A stretch of 33,401 nt of DNA from an uncultured Bifidobacterium sp. (GCA_964609875.1 CAZSUF010000001.1:17923-51323), one strand, 5' to 3'; positions 21,577-33,401 are shown, numbered from the stretch's first letter. Made by a program: numbers and translations. The notes: generated from the letters alone by a model not told the origin.

Positions 21577-22272
21577 CTATTCAGTTTTTTTTGTTGTTTT
21601 CATTTGTATGATGTCCACCAAAAAAGCAAATGCCATGGAAAAATAAATATATCCTTTAGGAATTTCAACATGAAAACCTTCTGCCAAAAGTGAAACTCCA
21701 ATCATCATTAAAAAACACAAGGCGAGTATTTTAAATGATGGATGTTTTCTAATAAATTCGCTTATGGGTTTTGATGCAAAAAGCATGATAAGCACTGTGA
21801 CAATAACCGCTGTATACATTACCCAAAGTTCTTGAACCATACCCACTGCCGTAATAATTGAATCAATAGAAAAAACCAAATCCAATATAATGACTTCGGA
21901 AAGTAATCTTTTAAAACTGCTGTTCTTTGGTACATTAGGTTTTGATTCGTTGGCTATTTCAGATTTATGATAAATTTCTTTGGTGCTTTTATAAATTAAG
22001 AAGAGTCCACCTACAATGAGGATTAAACCTTTGCCAGAAAAGTCAATGTCGAAAAATGTAAAGAGTGTTTGGTCAAGTTTTAATATCCATGCGATAAAGG
22101 CTAAAAGACATAATCTCATGACCATCGCTAAGCCTATTCCCCAAAAACGAAGTTGACTTCTTTGGTTATCCGGCAACTTGTCTGCCAAAATAGATATGAA
22201 AATAATATTGTCAATACCAAGAATTACTTCTAAAGCGATTAAGGAAAGTAAGGGAATTATAGATTCTGTCAT
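21577..22272 (-). CDS. TerC-family integral membrane protein (YjbE/YkoY-like, putative metal exporter)
   Basis: LGIDNIIFISILADKLP and DLVFSIDSIITAVGM are the paired TerC-family motifs. The protein has about 7 TM helices and is 231 aa long. Confidence 0.85.
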   Translation of the reverse strand: MTESIIPLLSLIALEVILGIDNIIFISILADKLPDNQRSQLRFWGIGLAMVMRLCLLAFIAWILKLDQTLFTFFDIDFSGKGLILIVGGLFLIYKSTKEIYHKSEIANESKPNVPKNSSFKRLLSEVIILDLVFSIDSIITAVGMVQELWVMYTAVIVTVLIMLFASKPISEFIRKHPSFKILALCFLMMIGVSLLAEGFHVEIPKGYIYFSMAFAFLVDIIQMKTTKKTE

Positions 22273-22373
22273 ATGTATAATTTTGTCTGTGTTTTAGTTA
22301 ATGTATTATCTTCTGTGCCATGCAACTCACCAGTTGGGCTTGTCGAAGATTAGACATTTGAAACACGCATATT

Positions 22374-22381
22374 CAAAAGTA
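22374..22381 (-). promoter_or_regulatory. Candidate Bacteroidota -7 promoter element (TACTTTTG = TAnnTTTG) for terC
   Basis: Exact match to TAnnTTTG on the minus strand, about 100 nt upstream of the terC ATG (22272). No clean -33 TTG was found. Confidence 0.3.
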
Positions 22382-22463
22382 GTACATGTATCATAAAATT
22401 TCACATATTGAGGCTTGCAATTTTGCTGGCACTGTTCATTGAGGCATGCATATCATAAAGCAT

Positions 22464-22812
22464 GTTCTACGAAGCGTCTTCGCTTCGTAGTTTTATTCTA
22501 TTGCTTTCAGCAATAAACGCAATGATCTTATGAAAACAAAATAGTAAATTAATGTTCTAAGTTTTCAGAAGGCTACAAAATTAGAATTTAGTTCTTCAAG
22601 TCATGAGCACTAAACAGTATGTTTTGCGAACCATGAACACTTCGTAGTTTGTTGGACTTGTATTGTTTACGAAGAACAAGAATACATATATAGCTGCGCT
22701 TCAAATTATGTTCATTTGGAAACTATAATTGGCTTTTATTTTTTATAATTCTATTTTCAGATTTGCTACAAGCAAAAGAATATAGCTGCGAAGCGAAGAC
22801 GCTTCGCAGAAC
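22464..22812. mobile_element. MITE-like, palindrome-bounded non-coding element, copy 1 (349 bp)
   Basis: The ~50-bp imperfect terminal inverted repeats match at 43/50 by hand alignment. Each contains a perfect hairpin: CTACGAAGCG-tctt-CGCTTCGTAG (22467-22490) and CTGCGAAGCG-aaga-CGCTTCGCAG (22786-22809). No coding capacity. Confidence 0.4.
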
Positions 22813-22913
22813 GGTTCAAAGCGTGCTTCGAATGACACATTCAAAACCAATTCATCATATCGGAACTGTAAAGCCCTAGCTCAGTTCATTGAGACATGCA
22901 TATCATGAAGGAT

Positions 22914-23262
22914 ATTCTACGAAGCGTCTTCGCTTCGTAGTTGTATTCTATTGCTTTCAGCAATAAACGCAATGATCTTATGAAAACAAAATAGTAAATT
23001 AATGTTCTAAGTTTTCAGAAGGCTACAAAATTAGAATTTAGTTCTTCAAGTCATGAGCACTAAACAGTATGTTTTGCGAACCATGAACACTTCGTAGTTT
23101 GTTGGACTTGTATTGTTTACGAAGAACAAGAATACATATATAGCTGCGCTTCAAATTATGTTCATTTGGAAACTATAATTGGCTTTTATTTTTTATAATT
23201 CTATTTTCAGATTTGCTACAAGCAAAAGAATATAGCTGCGAAGCGAAGACGCTTCGCAGAAC
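22914..23262. mobile_element. MITE-like, palindrome-bounded non-coding element, copy 2 (349 bp)
   Basis: Identical to copy 1 except at 22914 (a vs g) and 22943 (g vs t). The hairpins are at 22917-22940 and 23236-23259. Confidence 0.4.
23223..23259 (-). terminator. Terminator-like hairpin plus T-rich tract on the minus strand, downstream of the permease operon (right end of element copy 2)
   Basis: The minus strand reads CTGCGAAGCG-TCTT-CGCTTCGCAG followed by CTATATTCTTTTG. The equivalent structure occurs at 22773-22809. On the plus strand the left-end hairpins (22467-22490, 22917-22940) are followed by TTTTATT and TTGTATT. Confidence 0.3.
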
Positions 23263-23330
23263 GCTACAAAGCGTGGTTCGGCACACCCTCTTACAACCAA
23301 TACTTCATATCGGAACTGTAAAGCCCTAGC

Positions 23331-23403
23331 CCCGATAGTAGCGGATACCCCGCACCACGTGCCTCACGTGGGAGGAGTAGCAGCGGATAGCGGGAATAGC
23401 TAC
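23331..23403. other. GC-rich structured patch immediately downstream (minus strand) of the permease gene. Function unknown.
   Basis: Hairpin CCACGTG-cct-CACGTGG (23355-23371). It is flanked by direct repeats containing AGCGGATA (23340-23347 and 23382-23389). Possible outer pairings are CCCGC/GCGGG (23349-23353 / 23390-23394) and GTAGC/GCTAC (23338-23342 / 23399-23403). The patch is conspicuously GC-rich against an AT-rich background. Confidence 0.5.
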
Positions 23404-23413
23404 AAAAAAGAAA

Positions 23414-24529
23414 TCATAATTTAGTCTTTAGATCTAATGCATCTCTGAGTCCGTTGCCTAAAATATTAAACGCGAGTACGATCAACATGATGGCCACGCC
23501 GGGAATGATGGCGAGTAATGGCCTGTTGGTGATGATGAAATTATAATTTTCTTTAATCATCAATCCCCAAGAAGAGGCGGGTGGTTGAACGCCTATCCCT
23601 AAAAAACTTAAGCCCGCTTCGATTAAAATAGCTGTGGCAAAATTACTTGCAGCCATCACGATTGTTGGCCCCATGACATTGGGTAAAATATGTTTGATGA
23701 TAATACGCATAGATGAAAAGCCCATAGTTTTGGCAGCCTGAATAAATTCTAATTCTTTAATCGACATCACTTGTCCACGTATTAAGCGCGCCGTACCAAC
23801 CCACATGGTAAGTCCTACCGCGATAAAAATTTGCCAAAATCCTTTACCCAAAACAAAGGTGATAGCGAACACAAGTAGCAAGGTTGGAATAGCCCAAATG
23901 ACATTGATTAGCCAAGTAACCAATTGATCTGTGAAGCCGCCGAAATATCCACTGACGGCACCCAAGAATACACCAATAAAAATAGATAAGATTACGGCAA
24001 TAAATCCTACGGCTAAGCTAACTCGCGTGCCGATGAGTAGTCGCGAAAATAAATCTCTTCCATATCGATCTGTACCTAACCAAAAGGTGCGTGAGGTGAT
24101 GAGTTTTTCTTGTAGGTCTTGTGGGCTGAAGGTTTCCTGGGAACTGAGTTTTTTGATAGCAAAGGTTAGAGGCTCGCTCATGGTTTCGTCGATGATATGA
24201 TTTACATGTATGCTATCCTGCGTAAACTGAAAAGAGCTAATAGGAATTAATTCGTAATTTTTTTCTGTACCAAAAAAAACATGATGCAACCACGATTTTT
24301 TTTCGAGAGGAATAGAATTATATTTTTTGAGAAATAAAGATTTGAAGCCCGGAGGTTTAGTGGCTATTTCGATGATTAAAGTATTGGCATCTGGACTATC
24401 ATCTGTAGAAATCGGATAAGCAAAAACAGCTACAAAAACCATCATCAAAATAAACGCGGCTGCTATTAAAGCGGCTTTGTTTTTTCTGAATCGAATCCAG
24501 AATCTTGAGGTATGTATTGCATCTGCCAT
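23414..24529 (-). CDS. ABC transporter permease, OppC/DppC (binding-protein-dependent transport) family
   Basis: N-terminal OppC_N-like segment FWIRFRKNKAALIAAAFIL. EAA-loop region IQAAKTMGFSSMRIIIKHILPNV. About 6 TM helices. Confidence 0.8.
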   Translation of the reverse strand: MADAIHTSRFWIRFRKNKAALIAAAFILMMVFVAVFAYPISTDDSPDANTLIIEIATKPPGFKSLFLKKYNSIPLEKKSWLHHVFFGTEKNYELIPISSFQFTQDSIHVNHIIDETMSEPLTFAIKKLSSQETFSPQDLQEKLITSRTFWLGTDRYGRDLFSRLLIGTRVSLAVGFIAVILSIFIGVFLGAVSGYFGGFTDQLVTWLINVIWAIPTLLLVFAITFVLGKGFWQIFIAVGLTMWVGTARLIRGQVMSIKELEFIQAAKTMGFSSMRIIIKHILPNVMGPTIVMAASNFATAILIEAGLSFLGIGVQPPASSWGLMIKENYNFIITNRPLLAIIPGVAIMLIVLAFNILGNGLRDALDLKTKL

Positions 24530-26945: not shown

Positions 26946-27398
26946 ATGGGGCAGAATACAATTCTACAACCTCGGCTTATTCCAATAAAAATACCCGTAA
27001 AGCGTGGTTTTACAATTTTTTTTATGATGCTGTCGTTTCATGTATTTGCCCAAACATCCACAAATCATTTTACAAGCACAGCAGCTAGTTATCAAGTTGA
27101 TAAATTGACGAATGAAGAAAAGGCAGAATTAATTCAACAAATGGTTAATTCAAGTCGTGAAATCGAAATTCCTACGGAGATGGAAAAAAGTTTCAAGGAT
27201 TTTTTTGCGAACAAAGAATTTGGACCCAAGTTGTATTTAAAATTTAGAACGCTGTACGTGGTATTGTTCAATGAGAATATATCTAAAGTGAATCGTTTGC
27301 TGATGTGCAATTTTTTGCTGGATAATATGAGTAGTTCTGAGTTTCCTATAGATAGGGTATTAGATATCAAGCAAACTTTACTTAATTCAAGCAAGTGA
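26946..27398 (+). CDS. Small hypothetical secreted protein (~150 aa) whose stop overlaps the start of the giant adhesin gene
   Basis: The start at M68 of the track ORF gives a charged n-region plus the hydrophobic core FTIFFMMLSFHVFAQ. The 67 upstream codons look like translated AT-rich spacer. The TGA stop (27396-27398) overlaps the GTG (27395-27397) of the next gene. Confidence 0.5.
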   Translation: MGQNTILQPRLIPIKIPVKRGFTIFFMMLSFHVFAQTSTNHFTSTAASYQVDKLTNEEKAELIQQMVNSSREIEIPTEMEKSFKDFFANKEFGPKLYLKFRTLYVVLFNENISKVNRLLMCNFLLDNMSSSEFPIDRVLDIKQTLLNSSK

Positions 27399-30300
27399 AC
27401 AAATTAATAAAATATTATCTTGTAATCCTGCTTTGTTTGTGTACGTTCTTAGTATCGCATGCACAAGTCATTACTGTTTCTGGTGTTTCCGTTACAGGTC
27501 GATTTAATTCATGTAATGGATCTAATTTACCAACCATAACAGCAAACTTGATAAGCAACAATGGAGGTGCCAGTGTAAGCAATGGCTCATTTATTTGTAA
27601 TAATCAATGTGATTCGTCTACAATACGTGTGTCGATTTCTAATATTCGTTGGAATCAAAGTCCCAATGCAGAATGGTTGCATGGTATATTTTTGCCAGCC
27701 AATTTAGGATTTACTGTAAGTCCTGTAACCTTACCTGCTGGATTTATCACTTATAATGCAGGTTGTATAGGTCAATGTCCTTCTGGTTCAGGCACTAATG
27801 GTGGCCCTGGCTTTTATTTTGACAATTCGGCTGGTCAATCTTGTTGTTCAGGAGCTACTGCCAATGATGGTTATCCTTGTAACAATTATGGTAATGTGGG
27901 CATTACTTGTAACAACTCATTTTCTATGACTTTTGATATCAAGTTTTGCAACAGCTTGATTACAACAACAGGCTATACTTTTGTATTTAGTGGAACATCT
28001 GACGGAGAAACAGGATGTTGGAATGTGGATGATAATCAAATTCATCACATCAGTTTTACCATACCCACCAATGCATGTGCCCCTGTAAATCTGGCACCTA
28101 CAGCTACTACACCTATTAGATCTTGTGTGGGTTCTGTGGTGAATTATACATCAACCCTTACAGCGAACTGTAATTTAAATAATGTGTATTGGTGGGATGC
28201 ACCCACTGGGGGAAATTTAGTAGGTACAGGATCTCCATTTACTTATGACCCTTCGGGGTCTGCATGTCCAGCAGGTACTACATTGTATGCCACTTGTTGT
28301 GCTGGAACGGTGAATGGATGTGTTACACGAACACCAATTATCATACCTGGCTCTTGCGATTCTTTGTTTATTAGTGCCGTTAATTTTACAAATCCATTAT
28401 GTTATGGGCAAGGTATTGTTTCATCCATTGTCGTGCAGAACGCAAATGGAATTGTTACCTATACGTTGCAACCAGGTAATGTAGTGAATACCACAGGAAC
28501 ATTTACAGGCTTGAATCAAACATCTTATACAATCACAGCTTCTGATGCATCTGCTTGTTCTGTGGCTACTGTAATTAGTATGATACAGCCCACGCCCATT
28601 GTGTTTGGTACCCCAACTATCACTGGAGTTACATGTGATTTGCCTTCTTCAGGAACAATTTCAATCAATGCAAGTGGTGGAAATGGAGCTATTAATTATA
28701 GTATTAATCCTACAGCCACACAAAGTTCTAGTGGGTATTTTACAAGCTTAAGTGCACAAACTTACACCATCACTGCTTTAGATGCATCGGCATGTTCAGT
28801 AAGCACATTGGTTACTATAGCTCCCCCGCCAGTATTAAATTGGGTGAGTACAACTCAAGTCAATATTGCCTGTAATAATGTTCCCATTGGTTCTATTAAT
28901 GCGACAGCAGGAGGTGGATTTGGGACAATAAATTATACTTTACAACCAGGTTCTGTGACTAATTCGAGTGGAGCTTTTAATACATTAAGTGCAGGCACAT
29001 ATACTGTAACAGCTCTTGATGCAAACGGGTGTACATTATCTACAAGCATTACGATCACTCAACCTGCAGCCTTAACTTGGAACACACCCAATGCAACCAA
29101 CGTGGCTTGCTATAATACCAATTCAGGAGGAATAGCCATCACAGTGAATGGAGGTGCTCTGCCTATTTTATATACCTTGTTACCAGCAAATACTAGTAAT
29201 AATACGGGTACGTTTAGTGGACTTATTGCGACAACGTATACAGTAAACGCCTTAGATGCAAATGGTTGTACTTTGAGCACACAAATTACCCTTACTCAAC
29301 CAACTGCCTTCAATCTAAACAGTGTTACCTTTATTGACCCGACATGTATACCAGGAAATAATGGAAGTATAACTATCACAGCTTCTGGAGGTGTGACCCC
29401 ATATACTTATACATTGAATTCAGTATCTCAACCCGGAAATGTGTTTTCAAATTTACAAGGTGGAACATATACGGTGACTGTGAAAGATGCAAATAATTGT
29501 TCGAATACAAGTATCGTGAGTCTTATTGCACCAGGCACCCCTGTGTATTCATCAGTTAACAATGTGAACCTAGTGTGTAATGGATCTAATACAGGCAGTA
29601 TCAATGTAACAGCTACAGGAAGTTTGGGAGGATTTACGTATAATCTACAACCCACCAATACCACAAATGTTACAGGAAGTTTTACTGGATTAGGTCCAGG
29701 TACTTATACGGTTACAGCCACAGATAATAATACCTGTTATACCCAAACGCTTATTACAATAACTACGCCTGCTCCTATTGTGATGAATAGTTTAACAGCC
29801 ACTAATGTGATTTGCAATAGTGGAAATACAGGAACTATTACTGCTATTGCAAGTGGGGGTTTTGGCACCTTAACCTATAATCTTCAACCCGGAAACGTGA
29901 CCAATACAACAGGCTTATTTACTGGTTTAGCTATTGGGAATTATGCCATTACTGTAAAGGATGCAAACAATTGTAGTATCACCAGTTATATTGCCATTAT
30001 CCAACCTCCCATTGTTACATGGGTAAGTGTAACTAAAGTTGATGTAGGATGTAATGGAGGTGCCAATGGTAGTATTCAAGCGAATGCAACAGGTGGAGTT
30101 GCTCCGATAACTTATACACTTAACCCAGGAAATGTATCAAATCAAACTGGAACCTATTCAAATCTAATCACAGGCATTTATGTAATTACTGCTGCCGATG
30201 CAAACAATTGCACGACAGTCACTTCAGTCAATTTGTTTCAGCCTTCACCTATGTCCATATCGAATGTAAATATTACGTATCCTTCATGTGTACCAGGGAA

Positions 30301-33300
30301 TGATGGAATAGTTGTTGTTGCAGCTATTGGAGGTACATTAAATTATAATTATACATTAGGTGCTTTAACACAAGCTTCAAATACATTTTCAAATTTATCA
30401 TCGGGTGGATATCTAATTTCAGTGACAGATGCGAACAATTGTTCTGCAACAAGTTTTGTAAATATTATCCCACCGAATGCCCCTGTAGTGAACATTTCAG
30501 TTATTCAAGACGTATCATGTTTTGGAGGGAATAATGGCTCTGCACAAAGTAGTGCTACTGGTGGAACAGGGACAATCAATTTTAATCTTCAACCTGGAAA
30601 TCTAAATAACACGAGTGGAAATTTTACTAATTTAATTGCTGGGACCTATACAGTAACTGCCACAGACCAATTAGGTTGTTCTGGGAATGCAACTTTTTCT
30701 GTTTTACAAAATGTCTTACTCACCTTAAATGCCCCTGTAGTGAGTTTGCCTTTATGTCAAAATAGTACAAATGGAATTTTAAATGTGAGCGCACAAGGCG
30801 GAACGGGAACATACACCTACAACTTAATGCCTGGGAATATTTCAAACACGTCAGGGTTATTTAATAATTTAGGAGGGGGCTCCTATACCGTTTCTGTAGT
30901 TGATGGGAATGCTTGCACAAATACGCAGTTAATTACTTTATCAGCCCCCACAGCTATCACATGGACTAGTGTCTCAAATAATAATTTAAGTTGTAATAAT
31001 TCAAATAATGGGTCTATCACAGCAAATGCTTCAGGTGGGGTTGGATTAATTGATTATGCGCTACAACCTGGAAATATTGTAAATAATGTAGGTGTGTTTT
31101 CTAATTTGAGTGCAGGTACTTATACCGTAATGGCAAAAGATGCGAATGCATGTTCAATTAGTTCAATTGTGATTCTTACACAACCTTCTACCTTAACAAT
31201 TAACGCAGTACAAACCACCCCTGCATCTTGCATCCCAGGAAATAATGGAACATTAACAGTGAATGCAGGAGGAGGCACTTTGCCTTATAATTATTCCATT
31301 GGATCTGGCACGCAAACATCTGCAGTCTTTAATAATTTAATTTCAGGTATTTATAATATCACTGTAACCGATGGGAACTTATGTTCGGTAACCTCAACGG
31401 CTACAATTATTACACCCAATGGTCCAACTATTAGCTCAATAAATACAGTAGCTGTAAGCTGTAATGGCGGTAATGATGGACAAGCAACTGTAATCAGTTC
31501 AGGAGGAACAGGTTCTTCTTCCTATAATTTATTACCTAATAATATTACCAATACAACGGGTGTTTTTTCAAATCTGAATGCTTCAACTTATACCGTAGTT
31601 GTGACTGATGCAAATGGTTGTTCAGTTACAAGTAGTTTTTCAATTATTCAACCAACACCTTTAAGTATTCAGACTGCAAGTCCAACAAATATTACTTGTA
31701 ATGGTTTAAATAATGGGGTCATTAATATTTCAGCAAACGGTGGAACGGGTGCCATAACTTATGTATTAAACCCAGGGAATGTTTCAAATGCTACAGGTAT
31801 TTTTAATAACCTTTCGGGTAATAATTATACTGTAACTGTGAAAGATGCAAATTTATGTACCTTAACAACATTGGTAAGCATCATTAACCCACAAGCACTC
31901 ACAATACTGCTTGCCACTTCTTCAAATTTAAATTGCTTTGCGGGCAGTGAAGGAGCTATTCAAATGAATGTGATAGGAGGAACAGGAACGATAAATTATG
32001 TTCTTCAACCTTTAAACATTTCAAGTGCCTCAGGTCTGTTTAGTAATCTTGCAGCCAACACATATACAGTTGTTGCCAACGATGCAAATGGATGTTCAAT
32101 ATCGTCTGTATTTACATTAACTCAGCCTGCTGCACCCATTTTTACCCCTGTTATCGTGAGTCCTTCATGCACACCTGGCAACGATGGAAGTATAACCATC
32201 AATACTTCTGGTGGAACGCCTCCTTATAATTTTACTATAAACGGAGGTAGTGCTCAAACTTCAAATACCTTTAGTAATCTAGCAGCTGGTATTTATACAA
32301 TTGTAGTAGCTGATTCGAATGATTGCAAAGAAATACTTACCATTACAATTGCACCTCCCAATGCTCCTATCATAAATAATGCAGTGGCTTCCATTGTGAA
32401 TTGTTTTGGCGGGAATGATGCTATTATACAAGTAACAGGTGCTGGAGGTGTGGGCGCATTAAATTATAAATTACTTCCAAATAGTACTATCAATAATACG
32501 GGTATATTTAATGGGCTAACAGTAGGCACTTATACTGTCATTGTATCTGATGCAGGCAATTGTACAGTAAGTACTATTTTGACAGTTAATCAACCCGTTC
32601 AACTTGTATGGACTGGATCTGTTACTACTCCTATTAGTTGTTTTGGTGGTAACGATGGACAATTATCTGTGAATGCGAATGGAGGTATCGGACAAATTAA
32701 TTATACACTTCAACCCGGCAATATTACCAATACTACAGGTATGTTTTCCAATTTAGGTGCAAATGTGCACACCATTACCGCCATGGATGCTAACAATTGT
32801 TTTATTACAACCACACTTCAAATTACCCCTCCTTCTCAAATTTTAGTGACTAATGTAAATCTTGTTCAAGCCTCTTGTTTTGGCAGCAACGATGGTTCAA
32901 TACAAATTACTGCAACAGGGGGTACTGGTCAATTAACTTATCAGCTTTTACCTGGTTCTGTGAATAATCTTACTGGACAGTTTTCTGCTTTAGTTGCAGG
33001 GAATTATACAGTAATTGTTACTGATGTTAATAATTGTAGTACTTCTACCACAATGACAATTTCTCAACCAGTCGTTTTGCAAATTTCAAATTTACTTAGT
33101 ACTATTCCAAGTTGTATACCCGGAAATGACGCCTCTATTACAGTTTCTGCTTTAGGTGGTACTTCTCCTTATTCTTATTCAATCGGTGCGGGAAATCAAA
33201 GTTCAAATGTGTTTTTAAATTTGGGTGCGGGCAATTATACTATTCAAGTTACCGATGCAAATAATTGCACTGCTACTAGTGCCATACTTATTAGTAATCC

Positions 33301-33401
33301 AAATTCACCTGCTATCAATTCTGCAACATCTTCATTTGTCAATTGCTTTGGTGGAAACGATGCGATCATACAAGTAAGTGCAAGTGGTGGCACCGGTCAA
33401 T
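27395..33401 (+). CDS. Giant SprB-repeat cell-surface adhesin-like protein, 3'-partial (>2002 codons, runs off the right edge)
   Basis: I translated frame 2 by hand from GTG 27395, the first start-like codon after TAA 27383-27385. It begins (M)NKLIKYYLVILLCLCTFLVSHAQ (signal peptide). A Cys-rich region follows, then the Ig-like segment CVGSVVNYTS...VYWWDAPTGGNLVGTGSPFTYDP...TLYATC. After that come 22 repeats of the type C-N-G-G-N-D-G...GG.G...Y.L.P...N.TG.F..L..G.Y.V.V.DANGC. The frame was re-checked at 33341 (NCFGGNDAIIQVSASGGTGQ). The gene is absent from the ORF track only because no stop codon occurs before the window end. Confidence 0.9.
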   Translation, partial: MNKLIKYYLVILLCLCTFLVSHAQVITVSGVSVTGRFNSCNGSNLPTITANLISNNGGASVSNGSFICNNQCDSSTIRVSISNIRWNQSPNAEWLHGIFLPANLGFTVSPVTLPAGFITYNAGCIGQCPSGSGTNGGPGFYFDNSAGQSCCSGATANDGYPCNNYGNVGITCNNSFSMTFDIKFCNSLITTTGYTFVFSGTSDGETGCWNVDDNQIHHISFTIPTNACAPVNLAPTATTPIRSCVGSVVNYTSTLTANCNLNNVYWWDAPTGGNLVGTGSPFTYDPSGSACPAGTTLYATCCAGTVNGCVTRTPIIIPGSCDSLFISAVNFTNPLCYGQGIVSSIVVQNANGIVTYTLQPGNVVNTTGTFTGLNQTSYTITASDASACSVATVISMIQPTPIVFGTPTITGVTCDLPSSGTISINASGGNGAINYSINPTATQSSSGYFTSLSAQTYTITALDASACSVSTLVTIAPPPVLNWVSTTQVNIACNNVPIGSINATAGGGFGTINYTLQPGSVTNSSGAFNTLSAGTYTVTALDANGCTLSTSITITQPAALTWNTPNATNVACYNTNSGGIAITVNGGALPILYTLLPANTSNNTGTFSGLIATTYTVNALDANGCTLSTQITLTQPTAFNLNSVTFIDPTCIPGNNGSITITASGGVTPYTYTLNSVSQPGNVFSNLQGGTYTVTVKDANNCSNTSIVSLIAPGTPVYSSVNNVNLVCNGSNTGSINVTATGSLGGFTYNLQPTNTTNVTGSFTGLGPGTYTVTATDNNTCYTQTLITITTPAPIVMNSLTATNVICNSGNTGTITAIASGGFGTLTYNLQPGNVTNTTGLFTGLAIGNYAITVKDANNCSITSYIAIIQPPIVTWVSVTKVDVGCNGGANGSIQANATGGVAPITYTLNPGNVSNQTGTYSNLITGIYVITAADANNCTTVTSVNLFQPSPMSISNVNITYPSCVPGNDGIVVVAAIGGTLNYNYTLGALTQASNTFSNLSSGGYLISVTDANNCSATSFVNIIPPNAPVVNISVIQDVSCFGGNNGSAQSSATGGTGTINFNLQPGNLNNTSGNFTNLIAGTYTVTATDQLGCSGNATFSVLQNVLLTLNAPVVSLPLCQNSTNGILNVSAQGGTGTYTYNLMPGNISNTSGLFNNLGGGSYTVSVVDGNACTNTQLITLSAPTAITWTSVSNNNLSCNNSNNGSITANASGGVGLIDYALQPGNIVNNVGVFSNLSAGTYTVMAKDANACSISSIVILTQPSTLTINAVQTTPASCIPGNNGTLTVNAGGGTLPYNYSIGSGTQTSAVFNNLISGIYNITVTDGNLCSVTSTATIITPNGPTISSINTVAVSCNGGNDGQATVISSGGTGSSSYNLLPNNITNTTGVFSNLNASTYTVVVTDANGCSVTSSFSIIQPTPLSIQTASPTNITCNGLNNGVINISANGGTGAITYVLNPGNVSNATGIFNNLSGNNYTVTVKDANLCTLTTLVSIINPQALTILLATSSNLNCFAGSEGAIQMNVIGGTGTINYVLQPLNISSASGLFSNLAANTYTVVANDANGCSISSVFTLTQPAAPIFTPVIVSPSCTPGNDGSITINTSGGTPPYNFTINGGSAQTSNTFSNLAAGIYTIVVADSNDCKEILTITIAPPNAPIINNAVASIVNCFGGNDAIIQVTGAGGVGALNYKLLPNSTINNTGIFNGLTVGTYTVIVSDAGNCTVSTILTVNQPVQLVWTGSVTTPISCFGGNDGQLSVNANGGIGQINYTLQPGNITNTTGMFSNLGANVHTITAMDANNCFITTTLQITPPSQILVTNVNLVQASCFGSNDGSIQITATGGTGQLTYQLLPGSVNNLTGQFSALVAGNYTVIVTDVNNCSTSTTMTISQPVVLQISNLLSTIPSCIPGNDASITVSALGGTSPYSYSIGAGNQSSNVFLNLGAGNYTIQVTDANNCTATSAILISNPNSPAINSATSSFVNCFGGNDAIIQVSASGGTGQ
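28394..33401 (+). repeat. Array of 22 tandem SprB-type coding repeats (231-240 nt each) organised in a ~942-nt, 4-module super-repeat
   Basis: A leading Cys codon occurs every 231-240 nt. From the fifth module on, every fourth module begins C-[IVT]-P-G-N, with Cys codons at 29345, 30287, 31229, 32168 and 33113. The first module, Cys codon 28400 (LCYGQG), occupies the same register but is a diverged variant. Confidence 0.9.

Follow-up and report, generated by a model that had tools for sequence, protein, structure and literature searches.

A 33,401-nt stretch of DNA from an uncultured Bifidobacterium sp. (GCA_964609875.1 CAZSUF010000001.1:17923-51323), hereafter the window, raises the question of what a 349-bp element is that occurs there twice in tandem, and of why its two copies are so much more alike than the sequences around them. 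The repeat occupies most of the 1.14-kb spacer between a TerC-family gene and an OppC-like ABC permease gene. An earlier note on this DNA had considered a miniature inverted-repeat transposable element (MITE), a palindrome-associated element of the kind mobilized by IS200/IS605 or by tyrosine transposases associated with repetitive extragenic palindromes (REPs), abbreviated RAYTs, and a pair of structured RNA genes. Our analysis makes it highly probable that each 349-bp core is a vestigial REPtron, in which a RAYT (TnpA_REP, Y1/HUH) gene has lost its middle and kept its inverted cognate arms, and that the unit was then tandemly duplicated together with its flanks. As judged from its sequence, the cassette type is that of Bacteroidota, namely TnpA_REP subclass 2.6 (Quentin et al. 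2018), which is the same as RAYT group 5 (Bertels et al. 2017). The units and the arms at the core ends lie as follows.

22431..22880, + strand: tandem unit 1, 450 bp (33-nt left flank, 349-bp putative deleted-RAYT cassette, 68-nt right flank; from Tandem Repeats Finder and the mismatch map)
22881..23330, + strand: tandem unit 2, 450 bp (layout as in unit 1; its final 7 nt overlap a match to the Flavo-1 RNA motif)
22464..22514, + strand: left REP arm, copy 1 (palindrome 22467-22490 with a 10-bp stem ending in GTAG; T-rich linker; hairpin 2 at 22500-22514, ATTGCT-ttc-AGCAAT)
22762..22812, − strand: right REP arm, copy 1 (inverted; palindrome 22786-22809 with GCAG for GTAG; hairpin 2 at 22762-22776)
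22914..22964, + strand: left REP arm, copy 2 (nhmmer 57.5 bits)
23212..23262, − strand: right REP arm, copy 2 (nhmmer family-model match)

REP arms and the RAYT gene remnant

The imperfect inverted repeats of ~50 bp that had been noticed at the core ends are present (22464-22513 against 22763-22812, 50 nt, of which 43, or 86%, are complementary), as are the second small hairpins, at 22499-22515 and 22762-22776. The 24-nt palindrome CTRCGAAGCG-N4-CGCTTCGYAG occurs four times in the window, always at a core end, and is matched in 0/100 shuffles. In an nhmmer search with a family model, the left arm of copy 1 scored 59 bits (E 3e-19) and the right arm 52.6 bits (E 3e-17); they are terminator-like on the + and − strands, respectively. 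No further arm was found in the 33-kb window beyond the four core ends, and a search of the flanks for degenerate arms revealed none. A weak partial REP fragment inside the core (22622-22649, near the deletion junction; nhmmer E 0.04) was not relied on.

A palindrome scan of 185,579 species genomes yielded 62 loci, which were fetched (labels such as L021 denote these fetched loci). Nearly all belong to metagenome-assembled genomes (MAGs) of Chitinophagaceae/Bacteroidota, single MAGs contributing ~20 loci apiece. Blastn against the fetched loci revealed that the entire ~50-nt arm is conserved at 80-92%, beyond the palindrome, and searching the 62 loci with a profile made from 25 arms brings up 99 of them, showing that the arms are dispersed in related MAGs. 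The arm consensus comprises GTTCT[A/G]CGAAGCG, a 4-nt loop, CGCTTCG[T/C]AG, a T-rich linker and a second, 6-bp hairpin. In the 25-sequence alignment, 99.8% of stem cells pair and 28 cells are changed on both sides, a result reached by 0/500 shuffles; hairpin 2, which lies outside the search pattern, carries compensatory changes in 3/6 pairs (ATTGC/GCAAT, ATGGC/GCCAT, ATCGC/GCGAT, GTTGC/GCAAC). Covariation in homologs, which the earlier note had proposed as a check, is therefore found in both stems. Because pairing and compensatory changes extend across the family, the alignment indicates that the arm hairpins are selected as structures, as is typical of REPs. GTAG stands at the stem end in the left arms of the window and in 21/25 family members, even where its 5′ partner varies between A and G, and the right arms of the window have GCAG. 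The left arms thus carry the defining feature of a GTAG-tagged REP, a GTAG at one foot of the palindrome (Di Nocera et al. 2013, PMC3733652; Ton-Hoang et al. 2012); in the window family it sits inside a perfect stem, unlike in the E. coli REP. As far as we found, this arm of two hairpins, a 10-bp palindrome and a covarying hairpin of 6 bp, has no published description for Chitinophagaceae. A two-hairpin REP family with cognate RAYTs is here documented in that group; the literature we found treats the REP-RAYT systems of the phylum generally (Quentin et al. 2018).

Inverted arms of this family bracket intact RAYT genes of 185-193 aa in four loci: a 185-aa open reading frame (ORF) lies between the arms in L045, and L021, L027 and L039 have homologues enclosed by inverted arms. 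These intact relatives match Pfam Y1_Tnp, score 93.8-107.4 bits on the NCBIfam model NF047646 'REP-associated tyrosine transposase' (cutoff 80) and have E. coli TnpA_REP, 4ER8, as their sole PDB match. On the IS200 model NF033573 they reach 18-24 bits, below its cutoff of 55; failing the IS200 model and passing the RAYT model, they led us to reject IS200/IS605 proper. Their length and motifs (NH[IV]H; YIHQNP, or YIHLNP in L045; SS tail) fit TnpA_REP subclass 2.6 (PMC6006769). The L021 and L027 cassettes, from the same MAG, are 84% identical over 745 nt, and because this homology ends ~5 nt beyond the arms while the neighbouring genes differ, the arm-gene-arm cassette is a discrete unit. Intact cassettes measure 709-734 nt, with 607-632 nt between the arms.

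Remnants of such a gene were located in both cores.

22515..22551, + strand: 5′ leader remnant, copy 1 (blastn against L039/L027)
22552..22590, + strand: N-terminal RAYT remnant, copy 1 (tblastn and frame translations)
23002..23040, + strand: N-terminal RAYT remnant, copy 2 (identical to copy 1)
22638..22748, + strand: C-terminal RAYT remnant, copy 1 (residues ~149-184 and stop TAA at 22746-22748; includes IVYEEQEYIYSCASNYVHLETIIGFYFL)
23088..23198, + strand: C-terminal RAYT remnant, copy 2 (identical to copy 1)

The order within the core is colinear with that of the intact cassettes: left arm, 5′ leader, N-terminal codons, a stretch of unclear origin, C-terminal codons and right arm. The left arm, 5′ leader and first codons align with L039/L027 at 75% over 130 nt (blastn, unit positions 32-156). 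The N-terminal remnant opens with an ATG at 22552, meets a stop at codon 3 and, after a 2-nt frameshift, continues as KFSEGYKIR (22559-22585), which agrees with EFSEGYQIR (RAYT residues 4-12) at 7/9 positions. The C-terminal ~36 codons are matched by tblastn at 44% over 36 aa (E 6.6e-5 against the whole window) and retain the subclass-specific tail, YSCASNY in the window versus YSSATNY. When a RAYT hidden Markov model was run against six-frame peptides of the window, its only two matches were the C-terminal remnants (E 5e-6). Without its arms, the core interior still aligns with L061, L045 and L021 (E 1e-6 to 5e-5). Spacing is preserved as well: the arm-to-ATG distance is 38 nt versus 39 nt in L021, the stop-to-arm distance is also kept, and the cognate inverted REPs flank the gene in the orientation and with the spacing seen in L021, L027, L039 and L045. 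Missing from the core are ~360-400 nt, or ~125-135 codons, roughly residues 13/20 to 145/148, the HUH motif included. A Y1 transposase with HUH and catalytic-Tyr (YIH[QN]NP) motifs is not found in the core, where residues ~4-12(20) and ~149-184 are left. From these matches the core is a relic of a member of the RAYT-cassette family and cannot encode a transposase.

This result divides several claims of the earlier note. Its RAYT-palindrome option was right in that the arms belong to a REP family flanking intact RAYT genes in relatives; the 'non-coding element' between them is itself a transposase-gene remnant. That the window contains no transposase holds for an intact gene, none having been found in its 33 kb, but remnants of a RAYT gene lie in both cores. 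The longest + strand ORF had been put at 14 codons; counting ATG, GTG and TTG starts, there are ORFs of 23 aa (22462-22533), 21 aa and 38 aa, the last crossing the core edge, although no real gene emerges and the 38-aa ORF is encoded by no contig on record.

Related loci show further arrangements of arms and genes. Decayed RAYT remnants stand beside a single arm at L017 640-851 and L061 1167-1316, both in one MAG (JAGNOY), with deletions unlike that of the window; from these sequences, RAYT decay looks recurrent in the two-hairpin arm family. MAG JBIKQE also encodes a distant RAYT, the second in this MAG, which is 30% identical to the L045 protein and has a cognate REP of its own, CCCGTGGTTTGTG-TCTT-CACAAACCAC. 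There (L033 204-510, 565-1020, 1124-1157), seven tandem REP copies with a period of ~46 nt form one flank and a single inverted copy forms the other, and the two RAYTs of this MAG provide an example of RAYT-REP specificity within one genome. In another case, ORF6N-domain genes (PF10543, 286-287 aa) at L031 4216-5606 and L036 4302-6057 have REPIN-like arm doublets on both sides, so REP doublets can flank non-RAYT genes in that MAG.

Tandem duplication and uneven divergence

Tandem Repeats Finder recovered the two 450-bp units reported at 22431-23330 (22434-23330, period 450, 2.0 copies, 95% matches), and self-comparison at an offset of 450 reproduced the 2 differences between the 349-bp cores and the 19 among the 101 flanking bases. 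Mismatches fall at 22431, 22433, 22444, 22457 and 22461 in the left flank and at 22464 and 22493 only in the core; the following 320-nt run, 22494-22813, is free of any. In the right flank, 14 mismatches fall within 22814-22854 and zero within 22855-22880. Flank divergence amounts to 15-20%, with these 14 differences packed into a 41-nt patch adjoining the right arm. The chance that 21 mismatches spread uniformly over 450 positions would all miss a given 320-nt block is (130/450)^21, or ~5e-12, so the divergence is truly uneven, as the earlier note had held. When gaps are allowed, the patch resolves into a few substitutions and three small indels summing to zero, and it may stem from a few clustered mutation events in the quasi-palindromic stretch TTCAAAGC-GT-GCTTCGAA of copy 1.

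The cores are separated by a spacer that joins one flank of each unit.

22813..22913, no strand: inter-core spacer, 101 nt (unit 1 right flank, 68 nt, homologous to 23263-23330; unit 2 left flank, 33 nt, homologous to 22431-22463)

By its sequence, this layout is exactly what one 450-bp tandem duplication with its junction at 22880/22881 predicts. With flanks homologous on both sides, the idea that the core was inserted twice is not needed. Neither did a third copy of the right flank, suspected at 22355-22430, withstand comparison with chance: its local alignment score of 17 was reached by 131/1000 shuffles. Homology between the spacer sequences and the fetched loci was looked for, and none was found. 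The simplest account of the identity pattern would be that gene conversion or unequal exchange between the tandem cores homogenized them, with tracts stopping where identity collapses.

The history that we propose begins with a REP-RAYT-REP cassette, identified as such from its sequence, which would have stood between the OppC-like permease gene and terC, beside Flavo-1. An internal deletion, a frameshift and an early stop then inactivated the gene, and a 450-bp segment comprising the 33-nt left flank, the relic and the 68-nt right flank was tandemly duplicated at the junction 22880/22881; sequence comparison shows both events. Both core copies share one deletion, and the deletion would have preceded the duplication. 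Finally, the cores would have been kept or made near-identical, most likely by gene conversion, while the flanks diverged, including the patch by the right arm.

Locus context and alternative explanations

The features that border or adjoin the repeat are the following.

21577-22272, − strand: TerC-family gene, whose start borders the spacer
23414-24529, − strand: OppC-like ABC permease gene, whose stop borders the spacer
23324..23401, + strand: Flavo-1 RNA motif RF01705 (cmscan 49.6 bits, gathering score 42), a separate intergenic repeat directly after unit 2 and outside the cassette

The window has a G+C content of 35%, its best protein matches are from Chitinophagaceae, and the best named TerC match is from a Ferruginibacter MAG, which suggests a member of Chitinophagaceae as the source. 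The nearest long-contig genomes show only ~74% OppC identity. The exact TerC protein was not found on record; TerC homologues at 93-94% identity have neighbours that differ from those in the window, and the OppC-like homologues retain the GT2-OppC pair and have a different downstream gene. The nearest OppC relatives (99% and 87% identity) are Logan contigs of 1.3-1.4 kb that end in or at Flavo-1. One of them, L069, the sole same-species contig (OppC 99% identical), ends at 23324, the exact 5′ end of the Flavo-1 match; we rejected this end as support for the tandem structure, since Flavo-1 begins at that very position and the units share no more than a 26-nt run there. In comparison with L072-L076 and L063-L068, synteny breaks at the spacer holding the relic (22273-23413): each relative examined has a different gene downstream of OppC, and the upstream neighbours of the TerC homologues differ from the window. 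Farther along, a reading frame of at least 2005 codons (~27385-33401, + strand) with a signal-peptide-like N-terminus runs off the 3′ end of the window; other window genes carry type IX secretion system sorting domains, and this frame may encode a giant surface protein.

Because the right edge of the duplication reaches 7 nt into the Flavo-1 match, Flavo-1 was probably already present before the duplication. Flavo-1 is often found near REP arms or RAYT cassettes, 5/7 gathering-level matches lying within ~200 nt of an arm. The sites are window 23324-23401, L021 490-566, L013 459-556, L019 7466-7565, L004 579-683 and, below threshold, L033 105-158. It follows the right arm by 61 nt in the window and by 48 nt in L021, on the RAYT strand, and the stretch from right arm to Flavo-1 shows no convincing homology between these two. 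The proximity may be mere co-residence, the loci having been chosen around arms and both elements needing long spacers. In the Flavobacterium psychrophilum transcriptome, Flavo-1 matches lie sense, antisense or outside transcribed regions (PMC9723704), and by analogy Flavo-1 would fit a DNA-level repeat.

Any present-day effect of the element would come from its four arms, each of which has a GC-rich stem of 10 bp with a T-rich run after it and resembles an inward-facing intrinsic terminator. All four (4/4) scored as terminator-like, versus 0.8 expected. From the gene order, transcription reading through from the oppC-like operon would encounter Flavo-1 first and the copy 2 right arm next.

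Several observations weigh against a decayed and duplicated RAYT cassette. Neither the short protein remnants (9 and ~36 residues) nor the DNA alignment, which is noisy across the core's middle, fixes the exact endpoints of the deletion. The search for an intact RAYT and for further arms in the source covers the 33-kb window. Among the TerC/OppC relatives, no close relative with an identical gene junction was found, be it with an empty site or in the one-copy state, so the history is not polarized by an outgroup. The case for gene conversion is the identity pattern itself, and the sharp right edge of the identical block, at 22813, lies 1 nt from the cassette end, which fits copying as a unit equally well.

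Such copying would be expected of an active non-autonomous 'mini-REPtron' (a proto-REPIN) that is moved or recopied in trans by an intact RAYT elsewhere, the cores having recently been copied as an arm-bounded unit. The identical block does stop 1 nt beyond the right arm; the arms, intact and structured, belong to the family found on either side of live RAYTs; whole cassettes occupy two sites of one MAG, with homology ending at the arms; and in another MAG the same convergent arm architecture, with a 9-10-nt gap, makes up 9 REPIN-like doublets. The core flanks (...AAAGCAT / GGTTCAA... and ...AGGAT / GCTACAA...) contain no direct repeat that would mark a target-site duplication, consistent with Y1 (HUH) transposition. 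We nevertheless regard this explanation as unlikely. The homology of the flanks on both sides and the junction are those of one tandem duplication, which makes independent insertions unnecessary; there is no other 349-bp copy in the window; metagenome scans yielded 0 matches, both to a 25-nt stretch from inside the core and to a pair of palindromes spaced 280-310 nt apart; and the 38-aa core ORF turned up in no contig. Moreover, the right arms have GCAG, whereas GTAG is kept in 21/25 family members and is required by E. coli TnpA_REP (PMC3333891), and the remnants in L017 and L061 are structured differently, pointing to independent decay and not to a spreading derivative. An exapted function has still less to recommend it: purifying selection would keep the cores identical as a bidirectional terminator or insulator pair between the oppC-like operon and terC, or as a small or antisense RNA. 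The four terminator-like arm sites all face into their own cassette, effects of REPs on termination and mRNA stability have been reported (PMC3733652), and the core as single-stranded DNA folds far better than shuffles (z = −7.2). That fold signal, however, stems from the inverted arms, no Rfam family is matched, and interior conservation across genomes (71-78%) is no better than that of decaying RAYT sequence. Selection also leaves unexplained the 0 differences in 320 nt of pseudogene interior beside flanks diverged by ~20%, which homogenization would explain. Least credible of all is an assembly artefact, in which the locus would have one copy, or a short-read assembler would have collapsed differing cores to one consensus. 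The 320-nt exact repeat exceeds typical k-mers and no independent contig spans the region, the same-species contig L069 stopping at 23324. Yet the units differ at 21 positions, and the junction of right flank 1 with left flank 2 exists only if the units are adjacent. Bubble-popping could mask a core divergence of a few per cent, not the ~20% seen in the flanks, and the break of L069 is more simply due to the Flavo-1 repeat, whose 5′ end it matches.

The other identities fared worse. A MITE is not supported: a target-site duplication is lacking, the window contains no other copy, and the metagenome scans found neither such a size class nor a match to the 25-nt interior stretch. For a DDE-type MITE in particular, the inverted repeats are present (43/50) and the target-site duplication is absent. 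As for the structured-RNA gene pair, the interior is a pseudogene and nothing in Rfam rises above noise; with Rfam 15, only Flavo-1 passes gathering in the window, and matches within the core have E values of at least 1.9 and scores far below gathering. By eye, a CRISPR (clustered regularly interspaced short palindromic repeats) array was discarded, the repeats being far too long, as were an integron attC site and a diversity-generating retroelement, there being no integrase or reverse transcriptase nearby and the flank differences not being adenine-specific. What had been an unknown structured element would thus gain a concrete identity, that of a decayed, duplicated RAYT cassette, and its annotation as an RNA gene or a novel MITE appears unwarranted.

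Relation to known REP-RAYT systems

The decayed-cassette reading places the element closest to REPtron subclass 2.6 (PMC6006769), or RAYT group 5 (PMC5581495), which occurs mostly in Bacteroidetes (PMC6006769, PMC5581495). The intact relatives match the signature of this group (~180-190 aa, NH[IV]H, YIH[QN]NP with YIHLNP in L045, SS tail), and the window element shares their arms, their leader spacing and the subclass-specific C-terminal tail; it differs in being without ~125-135 codons, including the HUH motif, frameshifted, present in two tandem copies and nonfunctional. A precedent for loss of the gene comes from E. coli, in strains of which tnpA_REP has been lost by deletion and the flanking bacterial interspersed mosaic elements have been retained (Ton-Hoang et al. 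2012, PMC3333891). There too the RAYT gene was deleted and the flanking REPs were left in place, but the deletion was described as precise, without gene fragments, whereas the window relic keeps both gene ends and was, flanks included, also duplicated. The two cases differ in RAYT subclass and in REP type as well, and in the E. coli system TnpA_REP needs GTAG for binding and cleavage (PMC3333891).

The likeness to MITEs that arise from insertion sequences by internal deletion lies in the terminal inverted repeats (43/50) around an internally deleted transposase gene. The ends of the window element, by contrast, are hairpin REPs of a Y1/HUH system and not terminal inverted repeats of the DDE type, no target-site duplication is present, and any mobility would be hypothetical. 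With IS200/IS605 the element shares a Y1 HUH ancestor-type transposase, hairpin ends and the lack of a target-site duplication; its ends are inverted copies of one REP, unlike the distinct left and right subterminal hairpins that IS200/IS605 carries on one strand.

REPINs consist of two inverted REPs with a short spacer and are non-autonomous (Bertels and Rainey 2011, PMC3116915, PMC3337134). The window element resembles them in having two inverted cognate REPs that may fold into one long hairpin (single-stranded DNA fold, z = −7.2), and differs in its spacer, a transposase pseudogene of 249 nt versus ~10 nt, and in copy number: no REPIN-like copy population was found, with no second locus in the window and with the metagenome scans and the ORF look-up empty. 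Convergent arm pairs nonetheless fall into three gap classes, 607-632 nt in the intact RAYT cassettes, 249 nt in the window cores and 9-10 nt in the nine REPIN-like doublets; the classes stem from different genomes, most of the doublets lying in the MAG from which the L045 RAYT comes. Such a series, suggestive only, is the expected picture if doublets arose from cassettes by internal deletion, and the reverse direction, in which a RAYT gene came to sit inside a doublet, is likewise compatible with it. Whether REPINs originated from the flanks of IS200-like elements is a question that Bertels and Rainey raised and left open (PMC3337134), and an inverted-arm architecture of one family in three sizes (intact gene, deleted gene, bare doublet) bears on it suggestively. 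It is a long shot that the 349-bp unit is the birth of a REPIN caught midway, its interior lost and the unit still recopied in trans by a RAYT elsewhere in the genome. If true, this would explain why identity stops at the arm, and the gap series would be direct evidence that REPINs arise from REPtrons as MITEs do from insertion sequences. Compared with these systems, the element is a relic of a known REP-RAYT system and an ordinary product of its decay, whose modest point of interest is the origin of such repeats.

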